Part shown: positions 15,263 through 44,088 of the stretch, piece by piece
Layout of the letters: every line of letters starts with the position of its first letter
Position numbering within the stretch: the first letter of the stretch is position 1
NCBI GenBank assembly: GCA_964628035.1
Contig: CAZVPI010000008.1
Coordinates: 29,437-93,436 of the forward strand
Length of the DNA stretch: 64,000 bases
Origin: an uncultured Clostridia bacterium
GTDB lineage: Bacteria > Acidobacteriota > Aminicenantia > UBA2199
Direction of reading: 5' to 3'
The notes under the pieces: generated by a model
Told to the model about the DNA's origin: nothing
What the model saw: the letters and a program-made list of their open reading frames with translations, nothing else
Database searches by the model: none
Position numbers and translations under genes: made by a program

Positions 15263-15484
15263 CTCGGCGTACGGCTTACGGCGTAAGGCGTACGGAAGAA
15301 ACAAAATCAACGCCCGCTGCCACCCCTACAACGATCACCACCGCTTAGAAATTGTTGAAGCTCATTGCTTGCTGTTGCTGACACCAACCCTAACACGGAA
15401 GCTGGTCTTCTTGCTTTTGCCGTTCGCCGTCAGCCGAGTCTGCCTTTCCTTCCGTACGCCGTATGCCCTACGCCGTACGCCGAG
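15263..15484. mobile_element. MITE/REP-like element, family 2 (CTCGGCGTACGG-type ends), copy A
   Basis: Left end CTCGGCGTACGGCTTACGGCGTAAGGCGTACGG. Right end CCGTACGCCGTATGCCCTACGCCGTACGCCGAG is its inverted complement. About 220 bp between a promoter region and the ALDH 3' end. Confidence 0.6.
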
Positions 15485-15487
15485 TCT

Positions 15488-16852
15488 TCAAGAGAGCACG
15501 ACGGTCTTGATGTTCACGAACTCCTTGAGCCCGTAGCCCGAGAGCTCGCGGCCGTAGCCCGACATCTTGACGCCGCCGAAGGGCAGCCGCGGGTCGGACT
15601 TGACCATGCCGTTGATGAAGACCGAGCCGGCCTCGATCCGCGCCGCCATCCCCGCCGCCCGCTGCGGGCGGGCGCTCCAGACCGACGCCCCCAGGCCGAA
15701 GGGGGTGTCGTTGGCGATGCGCAGCGCCTCCTCCTCGTCGTGGGCCTGGATCAGGGCGGCCACCGGCCCGAAGAGCTCCTCGTCGTAGGCCGGCATCCCC
15801 GGCTTGACGCCCTCCAGCACCGTGGGCTGGAAGAAGAATCCCCTGCCGGCGATGCGCCCGCCGCCAACGAGGACCCGGGCGCCGCGGCGCAGCGATTCCG
15901 CCACCTGGCGCTCCAGCTCCGCGACCAGGTCGGCGCGGGCCAGGGGACCCAGGTCGTTGGCCTCGTCGAGCGGGTCGCCGGTTTTCAGGCCCGCCACCGC
16001 GGCGGTAAAGGCCTTGCGGAAGCGGGAGTACGCCGGCTTGACGACGATGAAGCGCTTGGCGGCGATGCAGCTCTGGCCGTTGTTGATCATGCGCGCGCTG
16101 ACGGCGGCGGCGACGCATTTGGACAGCGGGGCGTCGGCCAGCACCAGGAAAGGATCGCTGCCGCCCAGTTCGAGGACCGTTTTCTTCAGGGCGCGGCCGG
16201 CGGCGGCGGCCACGGCGCGGCCGGCGGCGTCGCCGCCGGTGAGGGTGACGGCGCGCACCAGCGGATGGGCCACCAGCGGCTCGACCCGCTTCGAGCCCAG
16301 GCGCAGGGTGGTGAAGGCCGCCGGCGGAAAGCCGGCGCGGCGGAAGACCTCCTCGATGCGGCAGGCGCAGCCGGTGACGTTGGCGGCGTGCTTGAGCAGG
16401 CAGACATTGCCGGCCAGCAGCGCCGGGGCCGCGAAGCGGAACACCTGCCAGAACGGGAAGTTCCAGGGCATCACCGCCAGGACCACTCCCAGGGGATCGA
16501 AGCGCACATGGCTGGAGGCGGCGTCGGCCGCGACCGGCTCGGGGGCCAGCAGCTCCGGACCGCGCCCGGCGTAGTACTCGCAGACCAGGGCGCACTTCTC
16601 GACCTCGGCGATGGCCTGGAGGATGGGCTTGCCCATCTCCTCGCTCATCAGCCGCCCCAGGCCGTTCTTTTCCGCGCGCAGCACGGCCGCCGCCTTTCGC
16701 AGCGGCGCTGCGCGCTGGCCGCAGCCCAGGCCGCCCCAGGAGGCGAAGGCCCTGTGGGCCTTGCGCACGGCAGCCTCCACCTCGGCGTCCGTATGCTCCT
16801 CGTAGCTGGCGATCAGCTCGCCCGTGGCCGGATTTATGGATTTCAAGGCCAT
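15488..16852 (-). CDS. NAD(P)+-dependent aldehyde dehydrogenase (succinate-semialdehyde dehydrogenase-like)
   Basis: Start MALKSINPATGE. ALDH hallmarks: catalytic Cys in NNGQSCIAAKRF, Glu motif LELGGSDP, and FGPV. Confidence 0.85.
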   Translation of the reverse strand: MALKSINPATGELIASYEEHTDAEVEAAVRKAHRAFASWGGLGCGQRAAPLRKAAAVLRAEKNGLGRLMSEEMGKPILQAIAEVEKCALVCEYYAGRGPELLAPEPVAADAASSHVRFDPLGVVLAVMPWNFPFWQVFRFAAPALLAGNVCLLKHAANVTGCACRIEEVFRRAGFPPAAFTTLRLGSKRVEPLVAHPLVRAVTLTGGDAAGRAVAAAAGRALKKTVLELGGSDPFLVLADAPLSKCVAAAVSARMINNGQSCIAAKRFIVVKPAYSRFRKAFTAAVAGLKTGDPLDEANDLGPLARADLVAELERQVAESLRRGARVLVGGGRIAGRGFFFQPTVLEGVKPGMPAYDEELFGPVAALIQAHDEEEALRIANDTPFGLGASVWSARPQRAAGMAARIEAGSVFINGMVKSDPRLPFGGVKMSGYGRELSGYGLKEFVNIKTVVLS

Positions 16853-16903
16853 GAGCCCTCCCGTATTGGACAAACTGACCCATTCTAAACCAATCCAAAA
16901 CTT

Positions 16904-16970
16904 TTCAGCAACTTGAAGGTACGACGGTCCATCGAGGTTCCACGTACCATGTACCACGTTCCACGTTAGC
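16904..16970 (+). repeat. Dispersed about 60-bp repeat, family B (TTCAGCAACTTGAAGGTACGACGGTCCATCGAGGTTCCACGTACCATGTACCACG), copy 1
   Basis: Near-identical copies at 23264-23314 and 44925-44976. Reverse-orientation copy at 29809-29874. Partial copies at 34790-34825 and 23446-23560. Confidence 0.65.
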
Positions 16971-17048
16971 GCGCATCAGATGCTTTGGTGCAGGTCGAGC
17001 TCCAAGCGGGTACTTTGGCATAAAAAAGGCAAGAATGAAGAAAACGGG

Positions 17049-17176
17049 CATTTTTCTTACCCTACGCCTTACGCCCTATGCCTTACGCCAAGTGTATTTT
17101 GCTTTGCTAACGTCGTCACTGAAGTCCGTCTTCTTGCTGCTGCCGTACGCCGTGCGGCCTATGCAGCACGCCGAGC
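17049..17176. repeat. Family 2 element remnant (two right-end-type GCCTTACGCC/CCGTACGCC blocks)
   Basis: CCCTACGCCTTACGCCCTATGCCTTACGCCAAG and CCGTACGCCGTGCGGCCTATGCAGCACGCCGAG are both in right-end orientation, so this is a rearranged or truncated copy. Confidence 0.4.
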
Positions 17177-17260
17177 CGCGCCTTTGACACATCGACCGTC
17201 CTTTGATATAAGGAAATTCCGCGAGCAAACGCTTCGATCACGGGCTTCACCGGAGGTTCT

Positions 17261-18658
17261 ATGGGCGGATTCTTCGGCGTGGCGTCCAAGGGCAACTGCC
17301 TGGCCGACGTCTTCTACGGCACCGACTACCACTCCCACCTGGGGACCAAGCGCGGCGGCCTGGCCCTGGCCGGAGACGGCGGCTTCGCGCGCGTCATCCA
17401 CAACATCGAGAACACCCAGTTCCGCTCCAAGTTCGACGCCGACCTCGGACGCCTGAGCGGCCGCTGCGGCATCGGCGTCATCAGCGACACCGACGACCAG
17501 CCGCTGCTCATCCGCTCGCACCTGGGCGACTACGCGCTGGTCACCGTGGGCGTGGTGGCCAACGCCGAGGCCCTGGCCCGCGACGCCTTCCGCCAGCGGC
17601 GCCTGCACCTGGCGGAGATGGGCAGCGGCGACATCAATCCCACCGAGGTCGTGGCCTCGCTGATCAACCGCGAGGACAGCTTCGAGGCCGGCATCGCCCG
17701 CGTGCTGGCCGAGGTCGAGGGCTCCTGCTCGCTGCTCGTGCTCACCCGCGACGGCCTCTTCGCCGCCCGCGACCGCCGCGGCCGGACGCCGGTGATCATC
17801 GGCCGCAAGCCGGGGGCCACGGCGGTCAGCTTCGAGACCTGCGCCTTCGCCAACCTCGACTATCTCCCCGAGCGCGGCCTGGGGCCGGGAGAGATCGCCT
17901 TCGTCGGCGCCGAGGGCTGGGAGACGCGCAAGGCGGCGGAGGAGCGCCTGCAGATCTGCTCCTTCCTGTGGGTCTATTACGGCTATCCCGCCTCCACCTA
18001 CGAGGGGATCAACGTCGAGGAGGTGCGCAACCGCTGCGGCGCCGCGCTGGCCGGCCGTTTCCCGGTCGCCGTCGACTACGTGGCCGGCATCCCCGATTCG
18101 GGGATCGGCCACGGGCTGGGCTATGCCGCCGCCGCCGGGCTCCCCTTCCGCCGCCCCTTCGTCAAGTACACCCCCACCTGGGCCCGCAGCTTCATGCCCC
18201 AGCACCAGGAGGTGCGCGACCTGGTGGCGCGCATGAAGCTGATCCCCATCCGCGAGCTGATCGCCGGCCGGCGCATCCTCTTCTGCGAGGACTCGATCGT
18301 GCGCGGCACCCAGCTGGGCGACACCATCCGCCGCCTCTTCGACGCCGGCGCCGCCGAGATCCACATGCGCCCGGCCTGCCCGCCGCTCCTCTTCGGCTGC
18401 AAGTTCCTCAACTTCTCGCGCTCGCGCTCGGAGATGGACCTGGCCACGCGCCGGGCGATCCGCGAACTGGCCGGAGCCGACGCCGATCCGGCGGCCTTTG
18501 TGCGCCCGGACGCCGACGGCTTCGCGGGCATGGAGGAATGGATCCGCCGCCGCCTCGGCCTCACCTCCCTCAAGTACCAGTTGATGGAGGACCTGGTGGC
18601 GGCCATCGGCCTGCCCAAGGAGAAGCTGTGCACCTATTGCTGGGACGGAGTAGAATAG
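17261..18658 (+). CDS. Amidophosphoribosyltransferase-like protein (PurF homologue) lacking the N-terminal catalytic Cys
   Basis: GGAGG RBS. The N-terminus MGGFFGV replaces the canonical MCGI(V/F)G. The PRPP-binding loop is retained (RILFCEDSIVRGTQ), with C-terminal cysteines CPPLLFGC...CTYCWDG. There is an in-frame upstream stop at about 17204, so no Cys-containing extension is possible. Confidence 0.8.
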   Translation: MGGFFGVASKGNCLADVFYGTDYHSHLGTKRGGLALAGDGGFARVIHNIENTQFRSKFDADLGRLSGRCGIGVISDTDDQPLLIRSHLGDYALVTVGVVANAEALARDAFRQRRLHLAEMGSGDINPTEVVASLINREDSFEAGIARVLAEVEGSCSLLVLTRDGLFAARDRRGRTPVIIGRKPGATAVSFETCAFANLDYLPERGLGPGEIAFVGAEGWETRKAAEERLQICSFLWVYYGYPASTYEGINVEEVRNRCGAALAGRFPVAVDYVAGIPDSGIGHGLGYAAAAGLPFRRPFVKYTPTWARSFMPQHQEVRDLVARMKLIPIRELIAGRRILFCEDSIVRGTQLGDTIRRLFDAGAAEIHMRPACPPLLFGCKFLNFSRSRSEMDLATRRAIRELAGADADPAAFVRPDADGFAGMEEWIRRRLGLTSLKYQLMEDLVAAIGLPKEKLCTYCWDGVE

Positions 18659-18872
18659 GAACGAGCTACAGTGAAGAGTAAAAAGCGAACAGTGTAAGAG
18701 TCGTGAAGAAACCAAGAGCAAGCAAACCGAAAAGCAAACAATGGACTATAGTGAAAAGGTCTAGAGAGAGACAAACGCAAGCACCGGTTCACACATTCAA
18801 CTTCAAGACGACGAATTGCTCTTTTTGTTTCACTTTTCACTTTTCACTTTTCACTTACAAGGAGGTTTTCGC

Positions 18873-21038
18873 ATGAAAAACATATTCCTCATCCTGCTGC
18901 TGCTGGGCCTGGCCGCCCTGCTGCCCGCCGAGGAAGGCATGTTCCCGCTGAGCGAGATCCACAAGCTCGACCTCAAGGCCCGCGGCTTCGAGCTGGCCCC
19001 GGCCGAGCTGTACAATCCCAGCGGCGTCAGCCTGGTCGACGGCATCATCAACCTGGGCGGCTGCACGGCCAGCTTCATCTCTCCCGAGGGGCTGATCCTG
19101 ACCAACTACCACTGCGCCTTCGGCGCCATCCAGGCGCTGACCACCCCCGAGAACGACTACCTGCGGGACGGCTTCACCGCCGCCACGGCCGCCGACGAGC
19201 TGCCCGCCCCCCGCTACACGGCGCGACTGATCGAGTCCTACCGCGACGTGTCGCGCGAGGTGCTCGCCGCGGTCAAGAAGCGGATGGACCACGCCCAGCG
19301 CAGCAAGGCCATCGAGGAGAAGATCAAGCGCATGGAGGTCGATGTGGAAAAGTCCCTGCCGGGCCGGCGCGCCGAGGTGGCCGAGATGTTCCGCGGCAAG
19401 ACCTACGTGCTGTTCGTCTACGCCAACATCAAGGACGTGCGCCTGGTCTACGCCCCGCCGCGGGCCATCGGCGAGTTCGGCGGCGAGGTGGACAACTGGA
19501 CCTGGCCGCGGCATACCGGCGATTTCGCCCTGATGCGCGCCTACGTCGCCCCCGACGGCTCGTTCGCCGACCATTCCCCGGCCAACGTCCCCTACCGCCC
19601 CAAGAAGCACTTCCAGGTGTCGGCGGCCGGGGTCGACGAGGGCGACTTCGTCTTCGCCCTGGGCTATCCCGGCAGCACCCACCGCCACAAGTCGTCGCAC
19701 TACCTGGCCTTCGAGGAGGAGGTGCGGCTCCCCTTCACCATCGAGCTGGGCCGCTGGATCATCGAGCTGAAGGAGACGATGAGCCAGGAGAGCCGCGCCA
19801 CGGCCATCAAGCTGGCCTCGTCGCTGCAGGGGCTCTGGAACGGCGTCAAGCGCAGCGAGGGGCAGCTGAAAGGGCTGCGCAACCTGGGGCTGGCCGTGCG
19901 CCGGCGCCGCCAGGAGGAGGAGTTGCAGACGTTCATCGCCGCCGACAAGGGGCGGCGCAAGAAATACGGCACCCTGTTCGCCCGCCTCGACAGCGCCTAC
20001 GCCGACATGCGCCGGCGCGCAACCCGCGACATGACCCTGGCCAACCTGGTGAGCGGAAGGGTCTCCACCCTGCTGGGGAACGCCTTCCGCATCTGCCTGG
20101 CCTCCTACGAGCGCGCCAAGCCCGACACCCAGCGCGAGGAGGCCTTCATGGACCGCAACTTCGAGCGCACCGAGCGCATGATGACCATGGCCCTGCGGGA
20201 TTACCATGAGCCGGCGGAACGGGCCGTCCTGCGCCATATGCTGGGCCGGGCCGCCGCCCTGCCGGCCAACGAGGCCGTGCCGGCGGTCCAGAGGATCGTC
20301 AACGGCGGCGAGCCCGGACAGGCCCTGGATGACTTCCTGGACAAGGCCCTGGCTGAAACGAAACTGAAGGACCCGGCCGTGGTCAGCGCCTGGCTGAAAA
20401 CGCCCCAGGCCGGGCTGAAGGCCCAGAAGGACCCGTTCCTGCGCCTGGCCTTCGACCTCTACCCCGATTACCTGGAGATGAAGGAGGCCGAAAAGCGCGA
20501 CAAGGGGATCCTGGACCCGCTGCTGGCCCAGCTGGTCGACGTCAAGAAGGAGTTCCAGGGGACCGATTTCATCCCCGACGCCAACTCCACCCTGCGCCTG
20601 ACCTACGGCCGCATCCGCCCCTATTCCCCGGCCGACGCCGTCGAGATGAGGCCCTTCACCACCCTGCGCGGCATCGTCGAGAAAACGGTCCTGCACAAGG
20701 GGTCCGAGGACTTCTCGGCGCCGCAGCGGCTGCTCGACCTGGCCGCCGCGGGTGATCACGGCGCCTACGCCCACCCGCGCCTGGGGGATGTCCCGGTGGC
20801 CATGCTCTACGACATGGACACCACCGGCGGCAACTCGGGCTCGCCGGTCTTCAACGCCCGCGGCGAGCTGATCGGCCTGAACTTCGACCGCGTCTACGAG
20901 GCGACGATCAACGACTTCGCCTGGGACCCGTCCTACAGCCGCTCCATCGGCGTCGACACCCGCTTCCTCCTCTGGTCGCTGGACAAGTTCAGCAAGGCCC
21001 GGAGACTGCTGGAGGAGATGGGGATAGGGACGAAGTGA
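18873..21038 (+). CDS. S46-family dipeptidyl-peptidase (DPP7/DPP11-like)
   Basis: AAGGAGG RBS. Signal peptide MKNIFLILLLLGLAALLPA. The chymotrypsin-fold triad is split across the protein: His in NYHCAFG, Asp in RHTGDFALMRAY, Ser in TTGGNSGSPVF. Confidence 0.88.
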   Translation: MKNIFLILLLLGLAALLPAEEGMFPLSEIHKLDLKARGFELAPAELYNPSGVSLVDGIINLGGCTASFISPEGLILTNYHCAFGAIQALTTPENDYLRDGFTAATAADELPAPRYTARLIESYRDVSREVLAAVKKRMDHAQRSKAIEEKIKRMEVDVEKSLPGRRAEVAEMFRGKTYVLFVYANIKDVRLVYAPPRAIGEFGGEVDNWTWPRHTGDFALMRAYVAPDGSFADHSPANVPYRPKKHFQVSAAGVDEGDFVFALGYPGSTHRHKSSHYLAFEEEVRLPFTIELGRWIIELKETMSQESRATAIKLASSLQGLWNGVKRSEGQLKGLRNLGLAVRRRRQEEELQTFIAADKGRRKKYGTLFARLDSAYADMRRRATRDMTLANLVSGRVSTLLGNAFRICLASYERAKPDTQREEAFMDRNFERTERMMTMALRDYHEPAERAVLRHMLGRAAALPANEAVPAVQRIVNGGEPGQALDDFLDKALAETKLKDPAVVSAWLKTPQAGLKAQKDPFLRLAFDLYPDYLEMKEAEKRDKGILDPLLAQLVDVKKEFQGTDFIPDANSTLRLTYGRIRPYSPADAVEMRPFTTLRGIVEKTVLHKGSEDFSAPQRLLDLAAAGDHGAYAHPRLGDVPVAMLYDMDTTGGNSGSPVFNARGELIGLNFDRVYEATINDFAWDPSYSRSIGVDTRFLLWSLDKFSKARRLLEEMGIGTK

Positions 21039-21272
21039 CGAGTGACGAGTGACAAGTGACGAGGCGCGCGCTTCGCGCACAAGGCAAAAGTACAAAGGCA
21101 AAGGGAAAGACAACGGCACAAGGGGAAGACGAACGGCCGCAGGATAAAGAATGAGTCATCAGGATGAGAAAGAAAGGAACTCATTCCAGAAAAGGAGATG
21201 CAATCGTTCGAACCTATCGCTGTTTTTCTTCTCTCGTCCCTTGTTACGTGTCACTTGTCACTGAGGTTCGCT
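21029..21272. mobile_element. MITE/REP-like element, family 1, copy 3
   Basis: The left end GACGAAGTGACGAGTGACGAGTGACAAGTGAC overlaps the S46 stop (ACG AAG TGA). The right end CTTGTTACGTGTCACTTGTCACTGAGGTTCG overlaps the GT2 stop (TAA on the minus strand). The internal GAGGCGCGCGCTTCGCGCACAAGGCAAAAGTACAAAGGCAAAG matches the copy at 6108. Confidence 0.65.
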
Positions 21273-22134: not shown

Positions 22135-22149
22135 CGGCGCGCGGCCGGC

Positions 22150-23187: not shown

Positions 23188-23263
23188 CAGGGATTCTCCT
23201 TAGAGCGAAGGAGCCATTGTAGTACGAATGGCCAACTTAAGCAAGTGAAGGGAACCCGGACTA

Positions 23264-23314
23264 TTCAGCAACTTGAAGATACGACGGCCCATCAAGGTAC
23301 CACGTACCACGTAT
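23264..23314 (+). repeat. Family B dispersed repeat, copy 2
   Basis: TTCAGCAACTTGAAGATACGACGGCCCATCAAGGTACCACGTACCACGTATT. Confidence 0.6.
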
Positions 23315-23445
23315 TAAGTACAAAGTAAAAAAGCCCTTGGAATTCCTCAAGCTTAAAGCCGCTTACGTTATAAGCAGTAACGCAATCACCTATTTCTAAG
23401 GCTTGTACGTTCACAGGATTTTTCTGGCTTTAAACATGGTACATG

Positions 23446-23560
23446 GTACGTGGTACGTGGTACCTCGAAGGACCGGGAGGTTTTTGTTCTCGAGATGGTA
23501 TGTGGTACCTCGACGGACTGGAGGTATTCAGGTCTTGAGATGGGATGTGGCATGTGGTAC
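23446..23560 (-). repeat. Two partial tandem family B copies in reverse orientation
   Basis: GTACGTGGTACCTCGAAGGACCGGGAGG and TATGTGGTACCTCGACGGACTGGAGGT are the reverse complement of the CCTCGATGGACCGTCGTACC core. Confidence 0.45.
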
Positions 23561-23588
23561 GTTCTGGCTCTCATGGTATAATGCCCGC

Positions 23589-24398
23589 ATGAAAAAAAGC
23601 ACTGTGCTGTGGCTGCTGGCCCTGCTGCCGACCCTGCTGCTGGCCGTCTACCAGCGCCTGAGCGGCCCCACCCACCCGCTGAAGGCGACCGAGGGCGACG
23701 GCGCCGCCCGCGTCACCTACAGGCTCTACCGCAGCTGGACGAGCCACCGGCCGCTGCCGGTGCGCGTCGCCGGCGACGGCATCGTCTCCATGCGCCTGCT
23801 TCACCGCCGCTTCCCCCCGGTCGAGGGCGAGGAGTGGGCGCCGGTGACGATGAAGACCCGCGGCGGAGCCTTCGTCGGCGACGTGCCGGGACAGCCGGCC
23901 GCCGGCAAGGTGGCCTACCGCATCGAGGCCGTAACCCCCTCCGGCAGCTTGTGGCTGAACGGCGGCGAGCCGGTCGTCGCCCGCTTCAAGGACGAGGTCC
24001 CGGCCTGGGCCCTGGTCCCGCACGTGCTGTTCATGTTCGCCGGGCTGCTCCTGGCTTTCCGCACCGGGCTGGGTGCGCTGCTGCGCCTGGAGGGCTGGGA
24101 GAGGCTCCTGCCCTGGACCGTGATCGTCACCGCCGCCGGAGGCCTGTTCCTCGGGCCGCTGGTGCAGAAGTACGCCTTCGGGTCTTTCTGGACCGGCTTC
24201 CCGCTCGGCCGCGACCTGACCGACACCAAGACCCTGTTCGTCATCCTGATCTGGCTGGCGGCGCTGTTCCTGAAGAGGAAGAGCCGCTGGTGGACGGTGG
24301 CGGCCATGCTGCTGATGATCGGCGTCTACATGATCCCCCATTCCATCTTGGGATCGGAGCTTGACTACAAGACGGGAAAGATCGTCACAGCGAAATAG
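23589..24398 (+). CDS. Hypothetical integral membrane protein
   Basis: Start MKKSTVLWLLALLPTLLLAVY, with several further TM segments. The upstream part of the track ORF (23403-23588) is repeat DNA, not coding. Confidence 0.6.
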   Translation: MKKSTVLWLLALLPTLLLAVYQRLSGPTHPLKATEGDGAARVTYRLYRSWTSHRPLPVRVAGDGIVSMRLLHRRFPPVEGEEWAPVTMKTRGGAFVGDVPGQPAAGKVAYRIEAVTPSGSLWLNGGEPVVARFKDEVPAWALVPHVLFMFAGLLLAFRTGLGALLRLEGWERLLPWTVIVTAAGGLFLGPLVQKYAFGSFWTGFPLGRDLTDTKTLFVILIWLAALFLKRKSRWWTVAAMLLMIGVYMIPHSILGSELDYKTGKIVTAK

Positions 24399-24401: not shown

Positions 24402-24642
24402 CTCGGCGTGGGGCGCAGGGCGTAGGGGGAAGAGGAAGAAAAAACTCGGCATAGGGCGTAGAGGAAGAAGAAGAAAAGACCTTGGCGAAGGGAACGGCAA
24501 CAATCGATCTGTAGCTTTTCTCTTGCGCCTGAAACTCACGCCTCATGCCGAGACCACCAATGCATTTCCCCTTGGTGAAATGAAAGGCAGAGACCGGTCT
24601 ATGGCTATTCCCTTACGCCTAATGCCTTCCGCCTTACGCCAA
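24402..24642. mobile_element. MITE/REP-like element, family 2, copy C (composite)
   Basis: Left ends AACTCGGCGTGGGGCGCAGGGCGTAGGGGG and AACTCGGCATAGGGCGTAGAGG. Right end CCCTTACGCCTAATGCCTTCCGCCTTACGCCAAG. Confidence 0.5.
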
Positions 24643-24644
24643 GA

Positions 24645-29628: not shown

Positions 29629-29808
29629 GGGAAGAAATGGTAATAATAGTGATAGTGGCAGTAGCAGCGTAGAAGCGATCATTCAGCTCAAGCGCAAAGC
29701 ATCTTCTCTTGCTTTCCCCCTTTACCTCCCCCTTGATGACTGATTCTCGTTTCTAGGAGTGAGAAGCTCTTAGAGCGCGGCAGGCCCCCAAGCATCGAGT
29801 GCTCGCTA

Positions 29809-29874
29809 ACGTGGTACACGGAACGTTGTACGTGGTGCCTCGAAGGACCGTCGCACCTTCAAATTGTTGACCAG
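29809..29874 (-). repeat. Family B dispersed repeat, reverse-orientation copy
   Basis: ACGTGGTACACGGAACGTTGTACGTGGTGCCTCGAAGGACCGTCGCACCTTCAAATTGTTGACCAG is the reverse complement of the family B consensus. Confidence 0.6.
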
Positions 29875-32498: not shown

Positions 32499-33250
32499 GC
32501 GCCGTCCTGGGGCTGATCGTCGGCAGCTTCCTCAACGTGGTCATCCACCGCCTGCCGCTCGGGCAGGAGGTCGTCTTCCGCCCCTCGCACTGCCCGCGTT
32601 GCCAGGCCGCCATCCCCTGGTACCTGAACGTGCCGGTGCTGAGCTACCTGGCGCTCGGCGGGCGCTGCCGCTTCTGCCGCGCCGCCATCTCGCCGCGCTA
32701 TCCCCTCGTCGAGGTCCTGACCGCCTTCAGCTTCTGGCTGGCCTGCCACGCCTTCGGCCCCGGCCTGCACGGGGCCGCCGTCGCCGTCTTCCTCTCGCTG
32801 CTGATCGCCCTGGCCTTCATCGACCTCGCGCACATGATCCTGCCCGACGAGCTCACCCTGGGCGGCGCCGCGCTCTTCCTCGTCTACGCCTTCTTCCACC
32901 CCGAGATCGCGGCGCGCGACGCACTCCTCGCCGGTTTCGGCGCGGCCCTGTTCTTCGCCGGACTTTTTTATTTCTACCTCAAGGTGCGCAAGATCGAGGG
33001 GCTCGGCTTCGGCGACGTCAAGATGGCGCTGCTGCTCGGGCTGTTCCTGGGCCCGCGGCGCATCACGGTGGCCATCCTGCTGGCCTCGTTGTCCGGGGTG
33101 CTGGTGGGGCTGTTCTTCATCCTGTTCCGCAAGAAGGACCTGAAGCTGGCCCTGCCCTTCGGCCCCTTCCTGGCGCTGGGCGGCTACCTGTCGCTTTTCT
33201 GGGGCGAGGCGCTGCTGGCCTGGATCGGCTCGCTGTGGGGCCTGCCGTGA
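32483..33250 (+). CDS. Prepilin peptidase (A24 family, type IV leader peptidase/N-methyltransferase)
   Basis: Putative GTG start. Zinc-binding CPRC...CRFC tetracysteine pair. Catalytic Asp in AFIDLAHMILPDE and GFGDVKMALLLGLFLG. Confidence 0.8.
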   Translation: MEEALSAVLGLIVGSFLNVVIHRLPLGQEVVFRPSHCPRCQAAIPWYLNVPVLSYLALGGRCRFCRAAISPRYPLVEVLTAFSFWLACHAFGPGLHGAAVAVFLSLLIALAFIDLAHMILPDELTLGGAALFLVYAFFHPEIAARDALLAGFGAALFFAGLFYFYLKVRKIEGLGFGDVKMALLLGLFLGPRRITVAILLASLSGVLVGLFFILFRKKDLKLALPFGPFLALGGYLSLFWGEALLAWIGSLWGLP

Positions 33251-34764
33251 GGCGCTCGTCGCTGGTGCTGCTGCTGGTGGTCGAGGCGTTGTCGCTGTTC
33301 CTATTCGAGAACATGCGCTCCCTGTTCGCCAGCCTGGAGGAGAACGAACGCCAGGCGATCACGGCCCATGCCGAGCTCCAGGCCGAGCTGCACCTGCTGC
33401 GCGCCGGGGCCGGTCGGCAGGGGGACGTGCCCCTGCGCTCGGACGATTTCGCCTCCATCGCCCGCCTGCCGCGCCCCGAGTCCGGGAAGCGGCTGCTGCA
33501 GGCGGACGGCGCCCTGCGCCTGGAGATCCGCAGGCCGCTCGGCGACGGCGGGCTGCTCTTCGTCAAGGAGGTCGATTCGCCGCAGCTGCACTCGTTCCAG
33601 GGCATGCGCAAGGTGCTGTCGCTGCTGGTCCTGGTCCTGGGCCTGGCCCTGGTGGTCAGCGGCTTCACCCTGGTCTCCCAGCTGCGTCGCCGCAAGCCCG
33701 AGGAGCCCGCCGGCGCCGTAGCGCCGCTGCAGGACTACCTGGCCGACCTCAAGAACTCCCAGGCCGAGCTCCAGGAGATCGTGGCCAGCGAGCGCCGCTC
33801 TTCCAGCCGCCAGGAGGAGCTGAACCGCAGCATCCTGAACATCGTCCCCCTGGGGGTGATCTATCTGTCGGCCAACGGCCGCGTCGAGCTGTTCAACCCG
33901 GCGGCGCAGAAGCTGTTCGGCCGCAGCCTGGCCGCGGTGAAGAACGCCCCCCTGTCCCAGGCTCTGCCCGGGCACGACGGGCTGGTCGCCTTCATCCTCG
34001 GCGCCGGCCGCCGCCGCCACGCCGAGTTCGAGAGCGGCCAGGCCGTCCTGGCCGTCGACGTGGTCCCCGTGGGCGCGGGCGACGCGGGCGCCGGGGCGGG
34101 GCGGCTGGCGCTGGTGCGCGACGTCAGCGAGGAGCGCCTGCGCGAGCGGGTGCGCCGCCAGAACGAGAACCTGATCATGCTCGGCGAGATGGCCGCCTCG
34201 CTGGCCCACGAGGTGCGCAACTCGCTGGGGGTCATCCTGGGCTACACCAAGGGGCTGGGCGGCGAGGCGGAGAAGAAGGCCAAGGTCGTCAACGAAGTGC
34301 AGTTCATGACCGACATGATGGAAAGCTTCCTGCGCTTCGCCAGGCCGGTCGACAAGGTGGCGCGCCGGCCGGTGGAGATCGGGGCGCTGCTGCAGGCGGC
34401 GGCCGCGGCCCACGGCCTGGCCGTCGACCTGCCGCCCGGCCGCCTCGAGCTGGCCAGCGACCCCCTGCTGCTCAACATCATCTTCTCCAACCTGGCGCTG
34501 AACGCCCGCCAGGCCGGCGCCGCCAGGCTCACCGCCGCCTTCGCGCCGGGGGAGGCCCCGTCGGTGCTCATCAACGACGACGGCGCGGGGATCCCCGCAG
34601 CCAACGCCGAGAAGATCTGGCTGCCCTTCTTCAGCTCCCGGGACAAGGGGACGGGCATGGGGCTGGCCACGGTCAAGAAGCTGGCCGGAGCGTTGGGAGC
34701 GGACATCCGGCTGGAGAATCCGGGAGAGCCGGGAGCTAGATTCAGAATTACTTTCTACACATAG
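33247..34764 (+). CDS. Membrane-bound sensor histidine kinase (two TM segments, PAS-like region, HisKA, HATPase_c), no adjacent response regulator
   Basis: GTG overlapping the prepilin-peptidase stop. H-box MLGEMAASLAHEVRNSL. N/G boxes IIFSNLALNARQAG...DDGAGIP...GTGMGLATV. Confidence 0.8.
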   Translation: MRRSSLVLLLVVEALSLFLFENMRSLFASLEENERQAITAHAELQAELHLLRAGAGRQGDVPLRSDDFASIARLPRPESGKRLLQADGALRLEIRRPLGDGGLLFVKEVDSPQLHSFQGMRKVLSLLVLVLGLALVVSGFTLVSQLRRRKPEEPAGAVAPLQDYLADLKNSQAELQEIVASERRSSSRQEELNRSILNIVPLGVIYLSANGRVELFNPAAQKLFGRSLAAVKNAPLSQALPGHDGLVAFILGAGRRRHAEFESGQAVLAVDVVPVGAGDAGAGAGRLALVRDVSEERLRERVRRQNENLIMLGEMAASLAHEVRNSLGVILGYTKGLGGEAEKKAKVVNEVQFMTDMMESFLRFARPVDKVARRPVEIGALLQAAAAAHGLAVDLPPGRLELASDPLLLNIIFSNLALNARQAGAARLTAAFAPGEAPSVLINDDGAGIPAANAEKIWLPFFSSRDKGTGMGLATVKKLAGALGADIRLENPGEPGARFRITFYT

Positions 34765-34789
34765 CGGTCAGTCAGCTAGAACTCCAAAC

Positions 34790-34825
34790 TCGTCAGCATC
34801 TTGAAGGTACGCCGGCCCACCCAGG
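34790..34825 (+). repeat. Partial family B repeat
   Basis: TCGTCAGCATCTTGAAGGTACGCCGGCCCACCCAGG. Confidence 0.4.
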
Positions 34826-34832
34826 CGCCACG

Positions 34833-35044
34833 CCGGCGTCCCTGGCAAGGGCGCCGTCCCCGAGGGACAGGCTGCCTGAGGGGGACCGGCGTCCCTGGCA
34901 AGGGCGCCGTCCCCGAAGGACAGGCTGCCTGAGGGGGACCGGCGTCCCCGGCAAGGGCGCCGTCCCCGAGGGACAGGCTGCCTGAGGGGGACCGGCGTCC
35001 CCGGCAAGGGCGCCGTCCCCGAGCGGGGTTCCACGTTCCACGGT
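34833..35044. repeat. 53-bp tandem repeat, four copies, non-coding
   Basis: Unit CCGGCGTCCC(T/C)GGCAAGGGCGCCGTCCCCGA(G/A)GGACAGGCTGCCTGAGGGGGA starts at 34833, 34886, 34939 and 34992. Each unit contains GTCCC..GGGAC and CAGGC..GCCTG mini-palindromes. Confidence 0.85.
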
Positions 35045-35163
35045 GGCGAGCATAAGGTGCCTGGGGGCATGTTGAGCTCCAGGCATTTTCCCCGGCTGAA
35101 ACAATAGAGTCCGAGAATGGCTGTTGCTGACACCAACGCTAACACCAACACTCGTTGTTCGGT

Positions 35164-35169
35164 TATAAT
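35164..35169 (+). promoter_or_regulatory. Candidate -10 box (TATAAT) immediately upstream of ispD, possible leaderless transcript
   Basis: GGTTATAATATGCCCATGAAAACC. The TATAAT ends 6 nt before the ATG at 35176. There is no SD sequence. Confidence 0.3.
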
Positions 35170-35175
35170 ATGCCC

Positions 35176-35853: not shown

Positions 35854-35861
35854 TGATCAGA

Positions 35862-35960
35862 GACGGCAAACGAGCGAACTAGCTTGGTGATTCGTAATTC
35901 GTGATCAGTGATTGGAACGGCATTGGTGGCGATCTCTAGCGAGCTATGGTGATTCGTAAT
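35862..35960. repeat. Direct repeat TGGTGATTCGTAATTCGTGAT x2 (family 4 relative)
   Basis: Copies at about 35869-35889 and 35938-35958. Confidence 0.5.
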
Positions 35961-35964
35961 TCGT

Positions 35965-36062
35965 GATTCTAGAAGAAAAATAGGTGAACGGTGTACGGTT
36001 TACGGTGTACGGGAAAATCCTAAGCCACCCAAGTCGTTCTTAGGCTTCTTCGTCTACCGTCC
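35965..36062. repeat. Short family 3 element (GGTGTACGG-type ends)
   Basis: GTGAACGGTGTACGGTTTACGGTGTACGG ... CGTCTACCGTCCACC. Confidence 0.4.
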
Positions 36063-36195
36063 ACCCAAAGTTGTTTATTCCTTTTACCTTTTACCTGCAA
36101 AGCACTCTTGCTTTACCCCCCCACCCCTTTACCCCTCTCCCCTGAATCCTGCTGTCAATTCCCGGGCGAATGCGCTATAATACGCCCCGTACCCC

Positions 36196-39975: not shown

Positions 39976-41078
39976 TCGCCTGGCTCAGTGAACTGTTCGC
40001 CGACCTGCCCGGGCAGCGGCTGCTGACCTACATCACCTTCCGCGCCCTGATGGCCATCCTCACCTCGTTCGCCGTGGGCATCGTGCTGGGGCGGCGCATC
40101 ATCCGCGCCATCTACCAGCTGAACTTCCGCGACCGCGCCCGCGACTTCGGCGACATGTCGCCGCGCAACAAGGACGGCACGCCGACCATGGGCGGGCTGA
40201 TCCTCTTCTTCTCCATGCTGGTCTCGGCGCTGCTGTGGGGCAGCTGGCGCAAGCCCAACGACTTTTTCCTGATCACCATCCTGTTCACCGCCTTCTGGTT
40301 CACGGCGCTGGGCTTCTTCGACGACTACCTGAAGAACATCCGCGGCTCCAGCGACCTGGGCATGAACCGCGGCCTGAAGCTGCTGCTGCAGGGGCTGTTC
40401 GGCGTCATCCTGGCCCTGCTGGTGCTGGGAAGGGAATCGTCGCCGTTCGTCGCCGGCACGGCCACCCTGCTGCATGTCCCCTTCTTCAAGACGCCGCTGG
40501 TCGACCTGGGCGTCCTCTATTACCCGTTCATCGTGCTGGCGGTGATCGCCATCGCCAACGCCATCAACTTCGCCGACGGCCTCGACGGCCTGGCCAGCGT
40601 CCCCTCGGGGCTGGTGAGCGCCGTCTACGCCGTCTTCGCCTACATCATCGGCAACTCGATCGCCGCCAAGTACCTCTGGTTCTCCTACATCCCCGGGGCC
40701 GGCGAGCTGGTGGTGGCCCTGGCGGCGCTGGTCGGCGCCCTGGCCGCCTTCCTGTGGTTCAACGCCTACCCGGCCGAGGTGTTCATGGGCGACACCGGCT
40801 CGCTGCTCATCGGCGGCGTCATCGCCACGTCGGCGGTGCTGCTGAAGCAGGAGCTGCTGTTCCTGATCGCCGGCGGCGTCTTCGTCATCGAGTTCCTGTC
40901 GGTCTTCATCCAGGACGTCATCGGCATCAAGCTGCTCAAGCGGCGCCTCTTCTACCGCGCCCCCATCCACCACACCTTCCAGTTCCTGGGCATCGCCGAG
41001 CCCAAAATCGTCGTCCGTTTCTGGATCCTGGCCGTGATCTTCACCCTGGTCAGCCTGATCAGCATCAAGCTGCGCTGA
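39972..41078 (+). CDS. mraY: Phospho-N-acetylmuramoyl-pentapeptide transferase
   Basis: Its ATG overlaps the fusion gene stop (ATGA). MraY motifs NAINFADGLDGLA and FMGDTGSL. 10 TM helices. Confidence 0.9.
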   Translation: MIAWLSELFADLPGQRLLTYITFRALMAILTSFAVGIVLGRRIIRAIYQLNFRDRARDFGDMSPRNKDGTPTMGGLILFFSMLVSALLWGSWRKPNDFFLITILFTAFWFTALGFFDDYLKNIRGSSDLGMNRGLKLLLQGLFGVILALLVLGRESSPFVAGTATLLHVPFFKTPLVDLGVLYYPFIVLAVIAIANAINFADGLDGLASVPSGLVSAVYAVFAYIIGNSIAAKYLWFSYIPGAGELVVALAALVGALAAFLWFNAYPAEVFMGDTGSLLIGGVIATSAVLLKQELLFLIAGGVFVIEFLSVFIQDVIGIKLLKRRLFYRAPIHHTFQFLGIAEPKIVVRFWILAVIFTLVSLISIKLR

Positions 41079-41097
41079 AGCGCCCGCGAGGAGCCCC

Positions 41098-43980
41098 ATG
41101 CCCGAAAAGCCGAACGGAGTTCAAGAAGCAAACCCCGACGCCACCCCCTGGCACGCCCTGAGCGCCGCCGAGGTCGCCCGCGAGCTCGCCACCCCGGCCG
41201 GCCGCGGCCTGGACGAGGAGGAGGCCGCCCGGCGCCGCGATCTGCACGGCCGCAACGAGATCGCGGCCGCGCCGCGCCCCACCTTCCTGAAGCTGCTGCT
41301 GGCCCAGTTCGACAACTTCATCATCCTGCTGCTGATCGGCGCCGCCGCCGTCTCCGGCTTCCTGGGGGAGTGGATCGAGGCGGCGGCCATCCTGGCCATC
41401 GTGCTGCTGAACGCCTTCCTGGGCGTGATCCAGGAGCAGCGGGCCGAGCAGGCGCTGGCCGCGCTCAAGAAGCTGGCGGCGCCCGAGGCGCAGGTGCTGC
41501 GCAACGGCTCGCGGCGCTCGCTGCCGGCGCCCGAGCTGGTTCCGGGCGACATCGTGTTCATCGAGGCCGGCAACTACGTGCCGGCCGACCTGCGCCTGCT
41601 GGAGGCGGTGAACCTGCGCCTGGAGGAGGCGGCGCTGACCGGCGAGTCGCTGCCGGTGGAAAAGGACGCCGCCATCCGCCTGGAGGCCGACGTGCCGCTC
41701 GGCGACAGGCGCAACACCGCCTTCATGGGCACGCTGGCCGCCGCCGGCCGCGGCACCGGCATCGTGGTCAGCACCGGCATGCACACGCAGATCGGGCTGA
41801 TCGCCGCCATGCTGCAGAAGGTCGAGCAGGAGTCGACGCCGCTGCAGAAGCGGCTGGACGGCCTGGGCAGGACTCTGGGCCTGGCCGCCATCGTCGTCTG
41901 CGCCGCCGTCTTCGCCCTCGGCCTGCTGCGCGGCCACGAGGCGCTGCAGATGTTCATGCTCGCCGTCGGCCTGGCCATCGCCGCCGTCCCCGAGGGGCTG
42001 CCGGCGGTGGTGACCATCAGCCTGGCCTTGGGCATGCGCGAGATGGTCAAGCGCCACGCCCTGATCCGCCGCCTGGCCTCGGTGGAGACGCTGGGCTCGA
42101 CCACGGTCATCTGCACCGACAAGACCGGCACCCTGACCCAGAACAAGATGACCGTCACCCGCCTGTGGGCCGACGACGACCTGGTCGAGGTCACCGACGC
42201 CGGCGCGGTGCTGGCCGGCGAGTTCCGCCAGAACGGCAGGGCCGTCGACATCAACGATCACCCGGCCATCGAGACCGCCCTGTGGATCGGCGCCCTGAAC
42301 AATGACGCCTGCATGGAGATCTCGGGCGAGAGCGGCGGCCGCGGCCCCACCTACCGCATGGTCGGCGACCCGACCGAGGGGGCGCTGCTGGTGGCGGCGG
42401 CCAAGGCCGGCTGCCTGCCGCGGCCCCTGTCCGAGGCCTACCCGCGCGTCTCCGAGGTGCCCTTCGACGCCACGCGCAAGAACATGATCACCGTGCACCA
42501 CATCTTCGCCCCGCGCCTGGCCGACTCCTCGCCCTTCGACGAGAGCCACCGCGACAGCGGCTACGCCGTGGCCGTCAAAGGAGCCCCCGACATGGTGCTG
42601 AAGCTGTGCAGCCGCTACCAGCGCCGCGACAACAGCGTGGCCCCGCTCGACGAGGCGACCCGCCAGCGCATCCTGGAGGCCAACACGGCCATGACCCGCG
42701 CCGCCCTGCGCGTGCTGGGCTTCGCCTACCGCGTCGACCAGGAGAAGCCCGACCCCCAGGACGTGCCGACGCTGGAGCGGGACCTGGTCTTCGTCGGCCT
42801 GGCCGGCATGATCGACCCGCCGCGCGCCGAGGTGGCGCCGGCGCTGGCCAACGCCGCCGCGGCCGGCATCCGCACCATCATGATCACCGGCGACTACCCG
42901 GAGACGGCGCGGGCCATCGCCTCATCGATCGGCCTGCTGCGCCCCGGCCACCAGGTGCTCAGCGGCCGCGACGTCGACCTGCGCAGCGCCGACGAGCTGC
43001 GGCGCGAGGTGCGCCGCACCGACGTCTTCGCCCGCGTCTCGCCCGAGCACAAGCTGCGCATCGTCGAGGCGCTGCGCGCCGAGGGCGAGGTGGTGGCCAT
43101 GACCGGCGACGGCGTCAACGACGCCCCCTCGATCAAGGCCGCCGACATCGGCGTGGCCATGGGCATCACCGGCACCGACGTGGCCAAGGAGAGCGCCGAC
43201 ATGGTGCTCACCGACGACAACTACGCCAGCATCGTCTCGGCCGTCGAGCAGGGCCGGATCATCTACGACAACATCCGCAAGTTCGTCTTCTTCCTCCTCT
43301 CCTCGAACGTGGCCGAGATCGCCATCATCTTCCTGGCCACCCTGGCCGGCCTGCCGGCGCCGCTGACCGTCATCCAGCTGCTGTGGCTGAACCTGCTGAC
43401 CGACGGCGCGCCGGCGCTGGCGCTGGCCATGGAGAAGGGCGACCCGGAGATCATGAAGCGCAAGCCGCGCCCGCCGGCCGAGCCGGTGATCAACTCCACC
43501 ATGCGCCTGGGCATCGTTGTGCAGACCGTGGCCCAGGCCGGCGCCGTGCTGACGGCGTTCGCCCTGGGGCTGCTCTGGCACCTGCGCGCCGGCGACGCGC
43601 TGCCCCCCGGCGCCAACCCCGTCGCCTTCCTGCTCGGCTACGACTGGCGCGGCCTGGACGTGCAGACCGCCGAGACCATGGCCTTCGTCACCCTGTCGCT
43701 GTGCGAGCTGTTCCGCGCCTACACCGTGCGCTCCGAGCGCCTGTCGGTGTTCCGCATCGGCGTCTTCTCCAACCGCTCCATGCAGCTGGCGGTGGGCGTC
43801 TCGCTGGCGCTGCTGTTCCTCGTCGTGTCCGTGCCGTTCCTGCAGCCTGTTTTCAACACCCATTTTCCCAGCGCCCGCGAGTGGGCGGTCGTGCTTGGAC
43901 TAGCCTTAGTGCCTGCTATGGCTGAAGAAATCACCAAGTGGTTCTTGCGGCGAGCTGACAAGAAACGGTTCTCGGCATAA
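41098..43980 (+). CDS. P-type cation-transporting ATPase (P2, Ca2+-ATPase-like)
   Basis: N-terminal domain HALSAAEVAREL...GL. Phosphorylation site ICTDKTGTLT. TGES. MITGDYPETA. Hinge MTGDGVNDAPSIKAADIGVAMG. Confidence 0.9.
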   Translation: MPEKPNGVQEANPDATPWHALSAAEVARELATPAGRGLDEEEAARRRDLHGRNEIAAAPRPTFLKLLLAQFDNFIILLLIGAAAVSGFLGEWIEAAAILAIVLLNAFLGVIQEQRAEQALAALKKLAAPEAQVLRNGSRRSLPAPELVPGDIVFIEAGNYVPADLRLLEAVNLRLEEAALTGESLPVEKDAAIRLEADVPLGDRRNTAFMGTLAAAGRGTGIVVSTGMHTQIGLIAAMLQKVEQESTPLQKRLDGLGRTLGLAAIVVCAAVFALGLLRGHEALQMFMLAVGLAIAAVPEGLPAVVTISLALGMREMVKRHALIRRLASVETLGSTTVICTDKTGTLTQNKMTVTRLWADDDLVEVTDAGAVLAGEFRQNGRAVDINDHPAIETALWIGALNNDACMEISGESGGRGPTYRMVGDPTEGALLVAAAKAGCLPRPLSEAYPRVSEVPFDATRKNMITVHHIFAPRLADSSPFDESHRDSGYAVAVKGAPDMVLKLCSRYQRRDNSVAPLDEATRQRILEANTAMTRAALRVLGFAYRVDQEKPDPQDVPTLERDLVFVGLAGMIDPPRAEVAPALANAAAAGIRTIMITGDYPETARAIASSIGLLRPGHQVLSGRDVDLRSADELRREVRRTDVFARVSPEHKLRIVEALRAEGEVVAMTGDGVNDAPSIKAADIGVAMGITGTDVAKESADMVLTDDNYASIVSAVEQGRIIYDNIRKFVFFLLSSNVAEIAIIFLATLAGLPAPLTVIQLLWLNLLTDGAPALALAMEKGDPEIMKRKPRPPAEPVINSTMRLGIVVQTVAQAGAVLTAFALGLLWHLRAGDALPPGANPVAFLLGYDWRGLDVQTAETMAFVTLSLCELFRAYTVRSERLSVFRIGVFSNRSMQLAVGVSLALLFLVVSVPFLQPVFNTHFPSAREWAVVLGLALVPAMAEEITKWFLRRADKKRFSA

Positions 43981-44088
43981 GGCGTAAGGCTTAGGGTGCA
44001 AGGGAAAAGCCATAGACCGTTCTTTGCTTTCCCTAAGCTGAGGTCTTTTCTTTTTTCCTTACGCCTTACGCCCTGCGCCCTACGCCGA
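43971..44088. mobile_element. MITE/REP-like element, family 2, copy B (short)
   Basis: The left end CTCGGCATAAGGCGTAAGGCTTAGGG overlaps the ATPase stop (TCG GCA TAA). The right end CCTTACGCCTTACGCCCTGCGCCCTACGCCGAG is its inverted complement. Confidence 0.55.

Follow-up and report, generated by a model that had tools for sequence, protein, structure and literature searches.

Intergenic heptamer repeats and the widespread PF05635/TIGR02436 proteins of no known function are two puzzles that may possibly share one explanation. The stretch of DNA analysed here (the window) comprises 64,000 nucleotides of an uncultured bacterium of the lineage UBA2199 (Acidobacteriota, Aminicenantia; contig CAZVPI010000008.1 of assembly GCA_964628035.1). 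A preliminary description of the window had noted several groups of repeats with inverted ends, one of which we call family 2. We consider it probable that the inverted ends of family 2 are the arms of a fold-back cassette akin to the intervening sequences (IVS) of 23S rRNA, in which the arms bracket a PF05635/TIGR02436 gene, and that most copies are gene-less. The three full family-2 copies of the window are among these bare hairpins, and the window also holds two copies that carry a pseudogene (50264-50722 and 61147-61605). In the window and in 46 comparison loci, arrays and PF05635 gene are parts of one cassette, and the match between protein and repeat unit is kept in unrelated contexts.

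Family-2 elements and PF05635 genes

The terminal motif CTYGGCRTRNGGC has 10 matches in the window, where 100 dinucleotide shuffles yield 0.16 +/- 0.42, and its sites (15263, 15484, 17092, 24402, 24445, 24552, 24643, 43971, 44089 and 62411) bear out the presence of repeat copies where the preliminary description had placed them. The two-unit pattern GGCGTANGGCRTANGG, allowing at most two mismatches, is found 24 times where 0.75 matches are expected. The ends had been taken for periodic 9-mers, which is wrong. Their period is 7, as also returned by Tandem Repeats Finder, and the window has 14 tracts at lag 7 (11 of them intergenic on a rough gene map based on open reading frames, ORFs), 0-4 at each other lag from 4 to 12 and none at lag 9. 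The unit is GGCGTAN, or equivalently NNNACGG, with CTCGG before and GGAAGAAA after the array, giving CTCGG-(NNNACGG)x4-GAAGAAA as the consensus end; the arms of paired elements measure 28-35 nt. The bases before the CTCGG tips vary (GTTT, GAAA, AAAA, GGTT, AGCA). The GGCGTAC family and the 'GGTGTACGG' family of the preliminary description are variants of one NNNACGG family, as seen in the spacer between DUF4412 and ALDH, where the window has CTCGG(CGTACGG...)x4 and the relative L020 has ATCGG(TTTACGG...)x4, each with four units; the flanks are shared and the right arms match. The family-2 features of the window are as follows.

15263-15484: gene-less fold-back; left arm 15263-15301, CTCGG(CGTACGG CTTACGG CGTAAGG CGTACGG)AAGAAA; right arm 15446-15484
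24402-24643: outer fold-back with arms at about 24402-24430 and 24604-24643, between convergent genes with stop codons at 24398 and 24645
24445-24552: complete inner hairpin within the outer loop, CTCGGCATAGGGCGTAG ... CACGCCTCATGCCGAG, z-score (z) -5.05
43971-44089: gene-less hairpin of 118 nt; its first unit contains the TAA stop codon of the ATPase (43978-43980), and the promoter TTGAAA-17-TACAAT comes directly after the hairpin
17056-17092, minus strand: right-type arm without a partner, reverse complement CTTGGCGTAAGGCATAGGGCGTAAGGCGTAGGG
17142-17176, minus strand: second right-type arm, in the same orientation as 17056-17092
62411-62432, plus strand: solo left end, CTCGGCGTAAGGCATCGGGTAA

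The end pairs align as inverted repeats, as had been proposed: in 15263-15484, complementarity between the two 39-nt arms is 87%. Folded as RNA, the three full copies pair end to end with z of about -5.5 (43971-44088, -5.6; 15263-15484, -5.5; 24402-24642, -5.3), a strength reached in 0 of 200 shuffles, and coding sequences used as a control gave z = -0.37 +/- 0.97. The copy at 24402-24642 is real, but where a composite with two left ends had been seen there is a nested pair with a complete inner hairpin. Family-2 sequence is likewise present at 17049-17176, described as a rearranged remnant; it consists of two right-type arms in direct orientation that form no hairpin (z = 0.03). The solo end reported at about 62401-62430 exists, at slightly shifted coordinates. 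A comparison of internal regions, also suggested earlier, shows that the three full copies have only the arms and about 25 nt in common, with no conserved internal core. A scan of the window with Rfam returned only a tRNA-Leu above the gathering threshold, and the elements match no curated RNA family. The seven metagenomic copies of the 43971 locus are all identical and uninformative on slippage. These results support a dispersed, hairpin-forming, non-coding intergenic repeat family, as the preliminary description had it.

Further copies are plentiful elsewhere. A metagenome scan with CTCGGCRTANGGCGTANGG found at least 120 loci; among the matches listed, a partner arm (20 or more of 30 bases matching, no further than 700 nt away) accompanies 23 of 44 in-array matches vs 2 of 78 non-array matches, and the elements range in length from 81 to 627 nt with heterogeneous loops. 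In the longest of these elements (L172, 627 nt) and in L182, a strain with a signal peptidase in the window's 90%-identity cluster, the loop inside the family-2 arms holds an ORF of 119 amino acids. It belongs to PF05635 (23S_rRNA_IVP; E = 7e-29) and to TIGR02436 ('four helix bundle protein'), matches the Xanthomonas protein XCC0516 (PDB 2GSC; E = 4e-28) and has a weak match (E = 0.004) to the profile NF033474 of Avd, a protein of diversity-generating retroelements (DGRs). At L185, a fully syntenic locus with its ATPase in the window's 90%-identity cluster, an intact 119-aa PF05635 gene lies in family-2 arms, as a cassette of about 700 nt, at the site of the bare window hairpin 43971-44089, with flanks and arms aligning; a second intact PF05635 gene occupies the site of the window pseudogene 50420-50632. 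Loci L187-L196 show the cassette in compact form: stop codon, CTCGG and four units, a 122-aa gene, four units and CCGAG, next promoter. In L197 and L198 (GC about 0.5), a 58-59%-identical protein is flanked on each side by 16-20 NNNACGG units. The window itself retains two decayed genes within arms of other sub-families.

50264-50722: nested fold-back of the sister sub-family CGGTNNA between convergent genes; outer arms 50264-50302 and 50695-50722, inner arms 50332-50363 and 50654-50685
50420-50632, minus strand: PF05635 pseudogene in the loop of these inner arms (39.9 bits vs a gathering score of 33.8); residues 1-71, 53% identical to the intact L182 protein, truncated and with an in-frame stop at codon 24
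61147-61605: decayed cassette with hexamer arms (period 6, CAGTGT) at 61147-61176 and 61579-61605; 15 end-to-end pairs, overall z only -1.2
61321-61491, minus strand: C-terminal half of a PF05635 pseudogene within these hexamer arms (profile positions 60-116, E = 6.6e-7)

Arms and gene occur together across phyla. An array lies within 220 nt of the gene at 40 of 46 PF05635 loci, among them loci from IMG/VR, Nostoc, Calothrix and Gemmatirosa. At 33 IMG/VR loci, encoding PF05635 proteins 30-43% identical to the query, we counted 51 lag-7 tracts vs 0-4 at other lags from 5 to 12; 35 of the 51 are no more than 350 nt from the gene, where tracts are 6.6-fold denser than in the remainder of the +/-1.5 kb considered per locus, and 24 loci have an upstream array that usually ends 8-100 nt before the start codon. 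Among the neighbouring genes at these loci are those for phage structural proteins, DNA polymerase III alpha and methylases. The unit also follows the protein. For proteins at least 0.7 identical, encoded at different loci with non-aligning outer flanks, the mean distance between units is 1.21 and 64% of the distances are at most 1, vs means of 3.1-3.6 for protein pairs below 0.7. Since proteins at least 70% identical have the same unit at unrelated loci, arms and gene relocate as one unit. A tblastn search of PLSDB with a PF05635 protein matched 41 of 72,556 plasmid records, among them Nostoc (18), Calothrix (4) and Riemerella (4) as well as Trichormus, Anabaena and Scytonema. The following genes have arrays next to them.

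Nostoc PCC 7120, WP_010994075.1: (CTTCTGC)x5 directly downstream
N. punctiforme, NPUN_RS35280: (CAGGAGT)x5 directly upstream
Calothrix PCC 7716: (TTAGCTG)x3 array upstream
Gemmatirosa plasmid (L238): octamer arrays around the gene

In Xanthomonas, one GGGAATC repeat, #15 in the table of Rehm et al. (2015, PMC4692102), overlaps with the XCC0516 start codon. Plasmids alpha and gamma of Nostoc PCC 7120 carry two identical PF05635 copies beside transposase genes. Contigs bearing PF05635 are mostly very short, which would fit elements that break short-read assemblies.

Gene ends, relatives and alternative explanations

The window, part of a metagenomic contig of 329 kb, has 64% G+C and ordinary housekeeping and exopolysaccharide genes, and its spacers are more A+T-rich and made of heptamer arrays with many units (AGTGACG, AGTGAAA, GTGATTC, CGGTNNA, GTACCAC, TTTGCCT and others). 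Almost every spacer consists of inverted heptamer arrays. Across the window and its relatives, 48 of 110 arrays are matched, at no more than 600 nt, by an inverted array of the same unit, and none of the 110 has a direct partner only. Among the further elements for which the preliminary description had claimed a like architecture, three (50264-50722, 46905-47031 and 10948-11185) likewise pair from end to end (z -3.7 to -5.9), whereas 35965-36062 folds no better than shuffles. The suggestion of one mechanism with many sub-families fits the observation that differently tipped elements have one shared architecture. The arrays with other units are listed below.

14170-14388: inverted AGTGACN arrays filling a convergent spacer, with a decayed AAATTCC inner element in the loop
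21031-21262: inverted AGTGACG arrays, both flanking stop codons within the arms, z -5.7
18666-18858: inverted AGTGAAA arrays from the GATase stop codon to the S46 ribosome-binding site; the orthologous pairs of relatives are AGTGATG or AGTGACG
10948-11185: inverted GGTGATC/GGTGGT arms directly 3' of the ABCF stop codon, z -3.7
46898-47031: GTGATTC arrays in inverted orientation, located between convergent genes whose stop codons both fall inside the arms, z -3.95
35983-36062: GGTGNAC array (35983-36013) with a short weak partner (36042-36062), fold z 0.14

The elements are placed at gene ends. Arms start about -12 to +7 nt from stop codons, abutting or overlapping them; all five convergent spacers of the window are filled from stop codon to stop codon, and in tandem spacers the element stops just short of the next promoter or ribosome-binding site. 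Thus 15263-15484 occupies the spacer from the ALDH stop codon (15488) to the DUF4412 promoter (15251-15222, minus strand). All copies sit between protein-coding genes, and there is no rRNA in the window. For annotation, this means that most 'intergenic' DNA in such genomes consists of these elements, and that their overlap with stop codons can extend or truncate reading frames. At L178 (12848-12877) the last codons of the ATPase run through a degenerate GGCGTAA-type array (…CGGCGTAAGGATCAGGGAGCGCAGTAA), and arrays can therefore become C-terminal coding sequence. Near-consensus promoters of the sigma-70 type directly follow the hairpins at 44094-44122 and at 15251-15222 (minus strand); the former, TTGAAA-17-TACAAT, is separated by 8 nt from the ATG at 44131, suggesting an mRNA with a very short leader or none.

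Canonical intrinsic terminators were considered and rejected, as no U-tract follows the 3' arms and terminator-like sites are rarer in the window than in shuffled sequence (8 vs 14.7). The 5' arm is richer in purines than the 3' arm (0.60 vs 0.41), stop triplets occur in 16 of 32 5' arms vs 4 of 32 3' arms, and all three frames are closed within 36 nt at 6 of 15 gene ends vs 0.14 expected. A period of 7, being 1 modulo 3, could place stops in all three frames, but the effect is only modest and possibly a by-product of the purine-rich 5' arm, and we do not accept it as the explanation.

The proteins of the window cluster with those of 'Candidatus Aminicenantes' metagenome-assembled genomes (MAGs), the relatives compared here; the best relatives among GTDB representatives have about 80-85% amino-acid identity, and the gene order ABCF-TPR-Ack-PTA-DUF4412-ALDH-GATase-S46-GT2-ADH-hyp-NMO-PPDK is conserved in 12 MAGs. 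Array density is 2-9.5 tracts per 10 kb in those close relatives that carry arrays and about 0 in some 600 kb of outgroup loci. Two close relatives, L011 and L014, are without arrays; L011 has the same gene order, with spacers of 14-76 nt that represent the 'empty' state, and no general host need for the arrays is therefore evident. At orthologous spacers the inverted pair is retained and the unit differs: upstream of S46 it is AGTGAAA, AGTGATG or AGTGACG, with both arms altered together, and L020 and L021 have orthologous four-unit arms at the site of 15263-15484. Within L105, L151 and L159, an orthologous family-2 hairpin is 94-97.5% identical and the third codon positions of the flanking gene are 71-77% identical. 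Among close relatives this hairpin evolves more slowly than synonymous sites, and over the longer term units are replaced or changed in concert.

The arms pair, and loops accept further elements. Over 25 family-2 elements, 82.9% of the cells between the two arms are paired, vs 78.3 +/- 0.7% when partners are shuffled (0 of 500 shuffles as high) and 26-48% when partners are slid by 1-3 columns, and the variable seventh base (N) of the heptamer shows CG<->AU/GU double changes between arms. This covariation shows that the arms co-evolve; it is not proof of selection on the RNA, because sub-family structure contributes. Array size has a plateau at 3-5 units followed by a 7-fold drop, and background matches in the outgroup decay geometrically. 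The relative L020 (UBA2199) has a composite fold-back of about 230-300 nt, with at least five copies within 17 kb that are 83-93% identical and conserved over about 230 nt. Its outer arms consist of CGGTNNA units and its inner ones of AAATTCC/GGAATTT, the loop is small, and an extra inverted pair sits at the centre of some copies.

L020 composite fold-backs: 6238-6535, 16619-16842, 7969-8352, 15358-15745 and 5051-5267

How such cassettes might persist can be sketched from the rRNA precedent. In transcripts, the stem of about 30 bp would be cut by RNase III, as experiments have demonstrated for rRNA IVSs, and this would make an insertion between genes, or at gene ends, nearly harmless; bare hairpins may arise by internal deletion of the gene, and slippage together with templated correction from arm to arm could keep the arrays homogeneous. 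As a working guess, the homopentameric protein would recognise its own array of 4-5 heptamers. Taken further, and here we are decidedly tentative, short-period, mostly heptamer arrays of bacteria and phages in general (the cyanobacterial short tandemly repeated repetitive sequences (STRRs), the GGGAATC repeats of Xanthomonas and the arrays of the window) might be the cognate cis-elements of PF05635 proteins, with binding of the pentamer maintaining or mobilising the cassettes. One array of 4-5 units would then be bound by one homopentamer, one unit per protomer and in a unit-specific manner; the complex would maintain or mobilise the arm-gene-arm cassette, targeting hairpin loops and gene ends, and thousands of gene-less heptamer hairpins would be its non-autonomous progeny. 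If true, this would provide a function for a large orphan protein family and an origin for repeats that have been unexplained since 1990.

Several observations weigh against a cassette origin of the arrays. The elements examined are associated with no target-site duplication and with no gene for a transposase, integrase or reverse transcriptase. A six-frame profile search found no PF05635 trace in 15263-15484 or 24402-24643, and their putative descent from gene-bearing cassettes is read from the identity of the arms. Some arrays have a period of 6 or 8, such as the hexamer arms in L179 (12866-13008) and the octamers in Gemmatirosa. At the 3' site of the ATPase, relatives with 86-90% amino-acid identity have other units (CGTGATT or the hexamer AGTGAT), which fits repeated replacement and equally a site-specific mutational process. 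L159 differs by 113 nt exactly in the apical loop, through either an insertion or a deletion. In the array-rich Aminicenantes genomes, adjacency of gene and array is weak evidence because nearly every spacer carries arrays, and the argument depends on two things, the contrast between near and far sequence at the IMG/VR loci and the way in which the unit follows protein identity. Finally, RNase III cleavage is argued by analogy, and binding of the protein to the array is a hypothesis.

The hairpins could instead be simple-sequence products that generate themselves, by slippage in a 7-nt register with the second arm made through intrastrand template switching, and be kept by the host as 3'-end stem-loops, insulators or regulator sites, in the manner of cyanobacterial STRRs, the GGGAATC repeats of Xanthomonas or the 'global regulator sites' of Geobacter; PF05635 genes would then be secondary passengers in the loops, as they are in rRNA helices. 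Heptamer repeats are reported as over-represented in many bacteria, for which polymerase slippage has been proposed in work cited in PMC4679880 and PMC4692102, and the position of the arms at stop codons, the filled convergent spacers, the scarcity of canonical terminator-like sites and the slow evolution of the arms relative to synonymous sites would suit a host function. Most window hairpins have no gene trace, and nesting could simply mean that loops are insertion sites. We nevertheless think this account rather unlikely, as it leaves related proteins with the same unit at unrelated loci, and arrays concentrated around the PF05635 gene in phage contigs, without a reason. Array sizes also level off at 3-5 units and then fall sharply in place of a geometric decay, the syntenic L011 does without any arrays, and no U-tract stands behind the 3' arms.

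Two accounts based on transposases fare less well. MITEs, or miniature inverted-repeat transposable elements, would be deletion derivatives of an insertion sequence, and a transposase gene located elsewhere in the genome would supply the enzyme that recognises their heptamer-rich terminal inverted repeats (TIRs). Small size, lack of coding sequence and intergenic position would agree with this, as would the conserved tip (CTCGG/CTCAG) of the inverted repeats in several families and the L020 composite with its several similar copies. The likeness to MITEs in the preliminary description holds for the relation of miniature to full-length form, relatives having gene-bearing versions at the same sites, but the full-length forms encode PF05635 and not a transposase. 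The flanks of all family-2 ends, when read, had no consistent direct repeat, that is, no target-site duplications, and neither the 64-kb window nor the syntenic loci contain a transposase. Many unrelated unit families with one architecture would moreover need many transposases, and we regard a classical MITE origin as improbable. We give still less credence, indeed very little, to repetitive extragenic palindromic (REP) elements, or their doublets (REPINs), moved by a REP-associated tyrosine (RAYT, Y1) transposase. Inverted doublets, hairpins, extragenic location, high density and absence of target-site duplications are seen here and are defining features of REPINs (PMC3116915), yet the arms here are tandem arrays, unlike REPs, and the description as REP-like fails because single arms are mostly not palindromes: single-arm DNA folds only at the CGTACG-rich 15263 and 15484 (z -4.6 and -3.3), the eight other arms giving z from +1.1 to -2.9. 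A search with Pfam families found no transposase, RAYT or Y1_Tnp among the ORFs of the 64-kb window. A diversity-generating retroelement was rejected as well. No reverse transcriptase lies near the Avd-like genes, either in a Pfam scan of 60 ORFs neighbouring the IMG/VR loci or, as an RVT family, among the precomputed Pfam hits in the gene tables of L185 and L187.

Other repeats and genes of the window

In a further repeat family, a conserved motif some 55 nt long (TTCAGCAACTTGAAGGTACGACGGTCCATCGAGG) precedes (TACCACG)n arrays; this family is probably the 'first' one of the preliminary description. Its copies have 80-90% pairwise identity and lie mostly upstream of genes, with the C-rich arm first, a polarity opposite to that of the other families.

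16900-16957: copy of the TTCAGCAACTTGAAGGTACGACGGTCCATCGAGG family
23258-23313: copy, with a partner at 23429-23475
29790-29870: copy, reverse complement
44919-44976: copy
34786-34832 and 35028-35081: split copy

Within the split copy, directly after a histidine-kinase-like ORF (32599-34764), a 53-nt unit is repeated 3.6 times with 97% identity (34833-35023). At 47019-48615 (minus strand), the gene for a 74-aa membrane peptide is accompanied by a 460-aa gene that has a motif like those of S-adenosylmethionine (SAM) methyltransferases and no Pfam hit. L178 has a similar pair at a different place (12954-14622, 71-74% identity), and L179 and L185 lack it at that position, a local rearrangement; we considered the pair as a mobile module or transposase and rejected this, since it looks like a rearranged SAM-methyltransferase-like pair. 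The genes at 50730-52979 and 56725-59073, both in one exopolysaccharide cluster, are paralogous tyrosine-kinase genes of the Wzz/GNVR/ParA type with 80% DNA identity over 1.68 kb. The long ORF at 6358-8598, which encloses the tRNA-Leu at 7553-7634 (minus strand; anticodon tag), is spurious, and the segment 7640-8950, without a confident gene call, has several purine-rich repeats.

Comparison with known systems

Tandem heptamers between genes have been known from cyanobacteria since 1990, later from Xanthomonas, Geobacter and Beggiatoaceae, and in statistical terms across bacteria, and by description the elements of the window belong with them. The GGGAATC repeats of Xanthomonas (Rehm et al. 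2015, PMC4692102) mostly have four units and form 70-75 inverted pairs per genome; the arms of the listed pairs are 21-67 nt apart, and arrays lie 3-16 nt from gene ends, including those within operons. In number of units, inverted pairing and position at gene ends they resemble the arrays of the window. There, a single G-rich unit was read as a G-quadruplex former, whereas here there are many units, most of which cannot form such a structure: runs of three G are absent from GGCGTAN, AGTGACG, GTGATTC and CGGTNNA when read from sequence. The loops here are longer and nested, and PMC4692102 draws no link to PF05635. The STRRs of cyanobacteria (Mazel et al. 1990, as cited in PMC4692102) are, by that account, also intergenic tandem heptamers of several unit types and unexplained function. 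The cyanobacterial genera with heptamers are those that dominate the PLSDB matches of PF05635 (Nostoc, Calothrix), in a phylum different from the Acidobacteriota/Aminicenantes considered here. The TAACTGA repeats (MacGregor 2015, PMC4679880) are intergenic tandem heptamers too, but mostly direct and upstream of start codons, whereas those of the window mostly form inverted pairs. In Geobacter metallireducens (Aklujkar et al. 2009, PMC2700814), 4-5 tandem heptamers occur in many copies with opposite-strand pairs; unlike here, they were read as binding sites of global regulators, some lie inside genes, and no gene-bearing form was described. The earlier proposals for heptamer repeats (G-quadruplexes, regulator sites, slippage) leave the association with a gene unexplained. 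We found no paper linking heptamer repeats with PF05635 in the open-access literature; as the subscription literature was outside the scope of the search, the link may be known.

Among mobile elements, MITEs and REPINs are likewise short, non-coding, hairpin-forming and intergenic, and related to a longer gene-bearing form; the elements here differ in that they show neither target-site duplication nor transposase or RAYT, and in that tandem arrays take the place of unique TIRs or palindromic REPs as arms. The Avd proteins of DGRs share the protein fold family, and PF05635 has been called Avd-like (PMC10053308), but near the loci examined there are no reverse transcriptase and no template or variable repeats. 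The family-2 elements are thus MITE-like in relationship only, and the closest known kind is the rRNA IVS element. In Coxiella, the IVS is a selfish element of 428 nt that is excised by RNase III; its terminal stem measures 28 bp and its S23p ORF is undergoing reductive evolution, and the S23p protein of Xanthomonas is a homopentamer (PMC4990558). The elements of the window differ from the 23S rRNA IVS with an S23p ORF of Coxiella burnetii and Leptospira (Warrier et al. 2016, PMC4990558) in lying between protein-coding genes and not in helix 25 or 45 of 23S rRNA, and in having arms of tandem heptamers, many arm sub-families and massively amplified gene-less derivatives. They agree with it in the terminal stem of about 28 bp around a PF05635 ORF of about 120 aa, with a total length of about 430-540 nt; in an ORF that is prone to decay, as in the pseudogenes of the window cassettes; and in insertion into the loop of an existing helix, which in the window takes the form of nested elements.

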